NCBI RefSeq assembly: GCF_003334765.1
Contig: NZ_QOWT01000122.1
Reading direction: 5' to 3' (one strand)
Length of the DNA: 450 nt
Source: Escherichia coli
Lineage (GTDB): Bacteria > Pseudomonadota > Gammaproteobacteria > Enterobacterales > Enterobacteriaceae
Position numbers and translations under genes: made by a program. Under the pieces are notes generated by a model, which saw nothing but the letters and a program-made list of their open reading frames with translations, was not told where the DNA came from and ran no database searches. Shown here in pieces: positions 1-450 of the stretch; positions within the stretch are counted from its first letter, which is position 1; every line of letters starts with the position of its first letter.

Positions 1-450
1 GAAGATGTTTTTCTTGCCTTTCTTCTCAACGGTCAGCAGACCTTGTTTGATCGCATACAGCGGAATAGCGTGTACCAAATCGCGCAGGGTGATGCCCGGC
101 TGCATTTTGCCTTTGAAGCGCACCAGAACGGATTCCGGCATATCCAGCGGCATGACGCCAGTTGCAGCAGCAAATGCCACCAGACCGGAGCCTGCCGGGA
201 AAGAAATGCCGATCGGGAAACGGGTATGGGAATCACCACCGGTACCGACGGTATCCGGCAGCAGCATACGGTTCAGCCAGGAGTGGATTACGCCGTCACC
301 CGGACGCAGCGACACACCGCCACGGTTCATAATGAAGTCCGGCAGCGTGTGGTGCGTATTCACGTCAACTGGTTTCGGATACGCCGCGGTGTGGCAGAAA
401 GACTGCATCACCAGGTCAGCCGAGAAGCCCAGGCACGCCAGGTCTTTCAG
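1..450 (-). CDS. acnB: Aconitate hydratase B (aconitase 2; bifunctional aconitase / 2-methylisocitrate dehydratase), internal fragment, partial at both ends
   Basis: Seen in sequence: the reverse complement read in the frame whose first codon is + strand 450..448 gives 150 sense codons with no stop across the whole window. The translation contains GSGxxH-like DGVIHSW and GGDSHTRF motifs and matches my recollection of E. coli AcnB through ...KGKKNIF. Codon usage is strongly E. coli-like: 16 of 17 Leu codons are CTG and 10 of 11 Pro codons are CCG. Established knowledge: the Asp-Ser-His motif and the upstream His are conserved active-site residues of the aconitase family. The identification rests on recalled protein sequence, not a database search. 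Confidence 0.95.

Follow-up and report, generated by a model that had tools for sequence, protein, structure and literature searches.

The 450-nucleotide stretch of Escherichia coli DNA analyzed here (hereafter, the window) is an intact, ordinary fragment of the aconitase B gene (acnB), with its active-site motifs in place. Its allele identity, read from a window without flanks, assigns it to a rare, accessory, island-borne second acnB rather than to the housekeeping gene. We give a probability of about 0.9 to the combined reading that the window is part of a functional AcnB-type gene, that this gene is the accessory copy of a cit operon, and that the operon has the kind of role we read from its gene context. 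A small minority of E. coli carries, in mobile islands, a second and selectively maintained AcnB together with a second citrate lyase, a transporter and a lactonase-like hydrolase.

Frame 1 of the minus strand is open across all 150 codons of the window, with no stops in the translation. The resulting 150-residue peptide is 100% identical to residues 425–574 of PDB 1L5J chain A (E = 8e-100), which the PDB entry identifies as E. coli aconitate hydratase 2. On its own, the window matches part of the AcnB equivalog model of NCBIfam (TIGR00117), with 335 bits over profile positions 415–564. The Pfam aconitase model (Pfam accession PF00330) is significant on window residues 47–129 (i-Evalue 7.5e-10, model positions 101–188 of 463), which supplies the catalytic-domain profile alignment that a first-pass annotation of this DNA had proposed as a check. 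We take the acnB product to be the bifunctional aconitate hydratase 2/2-methylisocitrate dehydratase. The AcnB numbering of the motifs in Table 1 follows from the 1L5J match. The first-pass annotation had read GDGVIHSW and GGDSHTRF from the minus strand, and translation of both intervals agrees exactly with that reading.

Table 1. Coordinates of window features (plus-strand positions) and of the two multi-gene loci discussed in the text.
Feature	Location	Strand	Basis or content
acnB internal fragment, codons 425–574 of 865	1..450	-	1L5J, TIGR00117; nucleotide allele matching the cit-operon-linked copy, variant 1
GDGVIHSW motif, AcnB 475–482	277..300	-	His480 codon at 283..285, column of mitochondrial aconitase His147
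GGDSHTRF motif, AcnB 495–502	217..240	-	Asp497-Ser498-His499 at 226..234, columns of mitochondrial Asp165-Ser166-His167
Asp497 codon	232..234	-	
Ser498 codon	229..231	-	
His499 codon	226..228	-	
His444 in SFCHTAAY	391..393	-	HMMER alignment of FCH to FDH of homoaconitase 4KP2
Nine-gene operon and divergent GntR/UTRA regulator	L001:11125-22011 (strain 746, NZ_CP023353.1)		Flanks ISEc38, IS66, IS100
Klebsiella oxytoca tricarboxylate cluster	L016/L017 1-20311		Aconitase (645 aa), PrpF, aconitase (754 aa), Iso_dh, AcnB paralog (862 aa); GntR; Amidohydro_2, CitMHS, citCDEFG, oadGAB

The active-site assignments rest on comparison with mitochondrial aconitase (pig and bovine; PDB 7ACN and 1ACO), a member of the same superfamily, which has the His147 and Asp165-Ser166-His167 columns in common with AcnB. 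The mitochondrial sequence was taken from PDB SEQRES, and its index corresponds to the classical numbering (Gln72, Asp100 and His101 fall where expected). BLASTP aligns the window peptide with mitochondrial residues 65–280 (E = 3e-4, ~29% identity in the aligned stretch) and pairs RPGDGVIHS with RPGSGIIHQ and GTGGDSHT with LIGTDSHT. The resulting columns place AcnB His480 with His147, and Asp497, Ser498 and His499 with Asp165, Ser166 and His167. HMMER alignments to homoaconitase (4KP2) and to the isopropylmalate/citramalate isomerase IPMI (4NQY) return the same columns, and window residues H56, D73, S74, H75 and T76 are invariant in a five-sequence cross-subfamily MAFFT alignment. His480 and Asp497-Ser498-His499 are invariant across AcnB, mitochondrial aconitase, homoaconitase and IPMI. 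The residue equivalences proposed in the first-pass annotation are thus upheld by the BLASTP, HMMER and MAFFT columns, and the alignments contain neither substitutions at Asp-Ser-His nor a placement of these residues in non-catalytic columns.

The same annotation described these positions as the substrate-binding and catalytic residues of domain 1. The alignment columns bear this out, as does the domain assignment (in the Robbins and Stout structure, mitochondrial residues below ~200 reportedly make up domain 1), but the word ‘catalytic’ is somewhat broad because the general base (mitochondrial Ser642, AcnB Ser244) lies outside the window. Ser498 contacts a substrate carboxylate, and the network to which it belongs surrounds the fourth iron of the [4Fe-4S] cluster, which has no cysteine ligand, and the water or hydroxyl bound to that iron. 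In mitochondrial aconitase, His147 and Asp165-Ser166-His167 form a hydrogen-bond network around the cysteine-free Fe4 and the bound water or substrate, Ser642 is the general base, and Cys358, Cys421 and Cys424 are the cluster ligands (PMC8184944). The motif residues are better called the hydrogen-bonding set for Fe4, water and substrate than the whole catalytic apparatus. The two enzymes differ in domain order, which is 1-2-3-linker-4 in mitochondrial aconitase and HEAT-like, 4, 1-2-3 in AcnB (PMC8184944).

Judging from the alignments, His444 is probably a further active-site histidine, equivalent to the histidine of the mitochondrial Asp100-His101 pair. In the HMMER alignment to homoaconitase 4KP2, AcnB has Cys443 at the aspartate column of this pair; a cysteine thus precedes the putative His101 equivalent in AcnB, whereas mitochondrial aconitase has an aspartate there. 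The MAFFT placement of His444 is ambiguous, falling on either His98 or His101 of the mitochondrial enzyme. Within the two motifs, the window differs from K-12 by three synonymous and no non-synonymous changes, two in GDGVIHSW and one in GGDSHTRF (GAT/GAC at Asp497). The motif finding is already known: it is textbook aconitase biochemistry in a gene that RefSeq annotates as acnB. As stated, it confirms the known enzymology of an enzyme with a solved structure and changes nothing.

The nucleotide allele is more specific. We compared the window by megablast with 5426 complete E. coli genomes and found a match in all of them, 23 at an identity of at least 99% and 5398 at 95–99%. Among the matches listed, 10 of 10 exact ones fall in a second acnB, adjoining the coordinates of a citG-acnB junction, and each genome with an exact match has acnB at two places in its chromosome. 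In strain 746, for example, the exact match is a second acnB of 865 codons directly downstream of citG. In K-12, acnB has yacH and yacL as its neighbors, in the housekeeping locus lpd-yacH-acnB-yacL. The window is identical to island variant 1 (450/450 nucleotides) and differs from island variant 2 at 12 positions, from K-12 at 15 and from a third allele (SWHEFF_58) at 18. The citG-acnB junction itself was found in 35 of the 5426 complete genomes (~0.65%). The exact variant-1 protein is indexed in 351 blocks of public assemblies, with cit genes directly upstream in all eight of the contexts listed.

Since the island cit genes and acnB are 97–98% identical to the E. coli core genes, an Escherichia-like donor must exist. 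This raises a competing account in which the window, which has no flanks and encodes a peptide identical to K-12 AcnB, belongs to housekeeping acnB at lpd-yacH-acnB-yacL in a divergent Escherichia lineage, its identity to the island copy reflecting the donor. We consider this improbable. Among the matches listed, every exact one is at the cit-linked locus, whereas canonical copies match at 95–99%, and the window allele was not seen at the canonical locus among complete genomes of E. coli, the one Escherichia species covered. An unsampled lineage could carry the window allele at that locus. Assignment to the island copy also has a practical consequence for annotation: acnB reads or SNPs from carrier strains may stem from either copy, a point to heed in typing and variant calling.

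We identified the island acnB as the last gene of a tightly packed operon of nine genes that encodes an Amidohydro_2 lactonase-like hydrolase, an MFS anion transporter, citC, citD, citE, citF, citX, citG and acnB. Intergenic gaps are 5–31 nt where measured (strain 746). Complete E. coli genomes contain at least three alleles of the operon at two or more chromosomal sites, with variant 2 located at another site that adjoins IS100. Carriers include human, animal and environmental isolates. Like the canonical citCDEFXG-citT operon with citAB, the island has a complete citCDEFXG set, ~98% identical to the core genes. Unlike the canonical citrate-fermentation operon, it has the Amidohydro_2 and MFS genes upstream, acnB downstream and a GntR/UTRA regulator; neither the citT antiporter nor the citAB sensor-regulator is annotated in the 24-kb or 30-kb operon regions.

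The border between acnB and its surroundings is sharp. Homology of the island gene to the K-12 locus extends from the start codon to ~10 nt after the stop; the island gene was thus inserted into the operon with ORF precision. A GGAG ribosome-binding site of its own stands seven nucleotides before an ATG start codon (GTG in K-12). K-12 AcnB (acnB, b0118; PDB 1L5J) and island AcnB have the same length, Pfam architecture, cluster ligands and active-site residues. The island gene differs from that of K-12 in its locus, at the end of a cit operon within a mobile island, and has neither of the native untranslated regions (5' or 3').

In strain 746, the operon lies in a ~90 kb mosaic island beside kps group-2-type capsule genes (L014/L015, 870-975 kb). 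The same island contains malX/malY-like PTS genes, Ag43, two CbtA/CbeA toxin-antitoxin modules, an integrase, papA/papI remnants, sul2 with ISCR2 and many IS elements. A plasmid origin was considered and rejected: in a megablast of the 11-kb operon against PLSDB, no record covers the citG-acnB junction. The E. coli matches there are megabase-sized ‘plasmid’ records with cit or acnB separately, at core-gene identity.

Several observations support the view that the island acnB is a functional, selectively maintained aconitase gene, as far as sequence can indicate this. First, the gene is complete. It aligns with K-12 acnB without gaps over 2598 nt, with 84 differences (96.8% identity) and a single terminal stop, and the proteins differ by eight changes in 865 amino acids, one of which is the start codon (GTG to ATG). 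We found no frameshift, premature stop or truncation of the island gene, and the CDS is annotated as intact in every genome inspected. The full-length gene with the window allele scores 1716.2 bits against TIGR00117, compared with a curated equivalog cutoff of 1287.2. Its 865-residue product contains, in order, Aconitase_B_N (Pfam accession PF11791), Aconitase_2_N (Pfam accession PF06434) and Aconitase (Pfam accession PF00330), corresponding to the HEAT-like domain, swivel domain 4 and domains 1–3.

Second, the residues expected of an aconitase are retained. Cys710, Cys769 and Cys772 are present in the full-length island and K-12 genes, in the contexts FIGSCMTN and IPGCSLCMGNQ; all three lie outside the window, in line with the earlier remark that the Fe-S cysteine ligands fall beyond its plus-strand position 1. 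Island AcnB also retains R191, S244-S245-R246, Q414-D415-T416, H444, H480, D497-S498-H499, R791 and R796. Together with the three cysteines, these are what we take to be the AcnB active site, following the UniProt P36683 annotation. We likewise take Ser244, Arg191, Arg246, Arg791 and Arg796 of AcnB to be the counterparts of mitochondrial Ser642, Arg580, Arg644, Arg447 and Arg452, given the annotation and their matching spacing.

Finally, the substitution pattern points to selection. We estimated dN and dS over the whole gene (865 codons) by the Nei-Gojobori method. Island variant 1 compared with K-12 gives dS 0.128, dN 0.0039 and omega 0.030, and variant 1 compared with variant 2 gives dS 0.119, dN 0.0015 and omega 0.013. 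Omega relative to K-12 is 0.030–0.034, and all comparisons together range over dS 0.119–0.128, dN 0.0015–0.0044 and omega 0.013–0.034; relaxed selection on the island gene (dN/dS near 1) was not found in any of them. The low omega at this depth of divergence between island alleles shows that the copy evolved under purifying selection during its residence in the island. Every island allele carries the signature K3, V71, R858, P862, S863 and V864, so they have one origin.

These values bear on a second account, in which the island gene is a redundant duplicate decaying to a pseudogene and its intact motifs reflect recent copying. We regard this as very unlikely. The housekeeping acnB would make the copy redundant, the IS-rich island is full of annotated pseudogenes, the upstream half of the operon has been lost in one genome, and one sublineage has an S709F change beside Cys710. 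The divergence of the island alleles from each other, however, shows that they are not recent copies. The gene is also full-length in every genome inspected, all examined active-site and cluster residues are kept, and the same module is conserved at a minimum of two chromosomal sites.

The first-pass annotation had likewise favored a functional copy over a pseudogene. Homology, the substitution pattern and the full gene sustain that conclusion, but the part of its argument that relied on the lack of stops is weak. Plus-strand frames 1 and 2 are also stop-free over the whole window (positions 1–450, six-frame count), and an open frame arises in 91 of 20,000 mononucleotide shuffles of the window (~0.5%); the absence of stops alone is therefore weak evidence for an intact gene. 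Stronger evidence comes from variation among five alleles: of the 23 variable sites in the window, 21 occupy the third codon position of the minus frame, and every one of the 23 is synonymous, so that the five alleles encode one single protein sequence over the window. Unlike the open frame, this codon-position pattern and the identity to AcnB go beyond chance. That the plus strand is the coding strand, as its two stop-free frames might suggest, is effectively refuted by the 100% identity of the minus frame to a protein of solved structure and by the synonymous, third-position bias of the polymorphic sites in that frame. In G+C-rich enterobacterial genes, antisense open frames often arise from codon bias, and the open plus-strand frames of the window are most likely antisense by-products of this kind.

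What the operon does can be approached through its hydrolase. The protein matches Pfam Amidohydro_2 (1e-43). Its nearest NCBIfam model is 4-sulfomuconolactone hydrolase, at a score below the cutoff, and its nearest structures are 2FFI, 4I6K and LigI (2-pyrone-4,6-dicarboxylate hydrolase), which are uncharacterized or LigI-type relatives. These matches suggest a putative lactone-hydrolase-like enzyme.

We used the hydrolase protein to scan species representatives and identified at least two loci (I. alba and P. composti). Both consist of a GntR–Amidohydro_2 pair and an MFS gene, a trio without cit or acn genes, which weighs against the metabolic link discussed below, and no catabolic genes shared by the two loci were found in their neighborhoods. 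An Enterobacter strain has the GntR–Amidohydro_2 pair with MFS and citCDEFXG and without acnB. In E. fergusonii, the pair occurs with CitMHS, near a cluster of a second lactonase, CitMHS, aconitase, PrpF and aconitase.

The closest parallel is in K. oxytoca (Table 1). As in the E. coli island, a GntR–Amidohydro_2 pair (59% identity) is joined to citrate lyase and an AcnB-type aconitase. At 73% identity to the island protein, the K. oxytoca AcnB is an older paralog, and its gene is upstream and divergent. The cluster differs from the island in having CitMHS as the transporter instead of MFS and in including an oxaloacetate decarboxylase. Three different aconitase-family genes stand side by side in it.

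That the pair recurs together with tricarboxylate transporters, citrate lyase and aconitases suggests, from gene context, a pathway of lactone opening, AcnB and citrate lyase. The MFS transporter would import a substrate that the Amidohydro_2 enzyme would hydrolyze. AcnB would interconvert isocitrate, cis-aconitate and citrate (or a close analogue), and citrate lyase would cleave the AcnB product to oxaloacetate and acetate. One tentative proposal, to which we assign a rather low probability, is that the operon is an undescribed anaerobic route for a tricarboxylic hydroxy-acid lactone, such as isocitrate lactone or a plant hydroxycitrate lactone, and that an AcnB-type enzyme was recruited to this route at least twice. 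Import would then be followed by ring opening by the LigI-like hydrolase, isomerization to citrate by AcnB and cleavage by citrate lyase, and the two recruitments would be of an old paralog in K. oxytoca and, in E. coli, of a recent copy of the core gene. If the operon is a nutrient-acquisition pathway, it would exemplify the precise copying of a core TCA-cycle gene into an accessory catabolic operon. Full-text literature searches on a second acnB, on a cit island, on isocitrate lactone and on the breakdown of hydroxycitrate found no relevant description. The cit-linked operon with acnB is apparently uncharacterized and offers a modest lead beyond the known enzymology.

Two departures from the intact operon were observed. 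In B-JRPT-4119 (CP106756.1, L013 1-12598), the regulator, hydrolase, MFS and citC-E genes are replaced by CP4-type island genes (CbtA/CbeA, RadC and antirestriction), leaving an operon reduced to citF, citX, citG and acnB. In strain 10 (NZ_CP048330.1, L003:11726-14323), the island acnB encodes S709F, which turns FIGSCMTN into FIGFCMTN directly before the ligand Cys710. The exact S709F protein is found in only ~3 assemblies, and the variant-2 genome of strain 51489 keeps Ser709. This change could impair cluster binding. The loss of the 5' half in B-JRPT-4119 and the S709F sublineage indicate that maintenance of the operon is not universal.

A perfect 13-bp inverted repeat, AGAACTCCGTCTA-ATC-TAGACGGAGTTCT, lies ~70 nt after the island acnB stop (L001:11026-11054, minus strand) and is plausibly a transcription terminator or an IS-related end. 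Scanning the operon for consensus promoters and terminators gave counts at or below shuffle expectation and left this 13-bp hairpin unflagged.

The acnB alignment of variant 1, variant 2 and K-12 (codons 1–865) is mosaic, with 46 sites common to the island alleles, 35 specific to variant 1 and 36 specific to variant 2. In stretches of ~nt 800–1400, variant 2 agrees with K-12, and divergence is greater at the ends of the gene than in its interior. The mosaic of informative sites, with variant 2 equal to K-12 in places, is suggestive of gene conversion between the island acnB and the resident copy.
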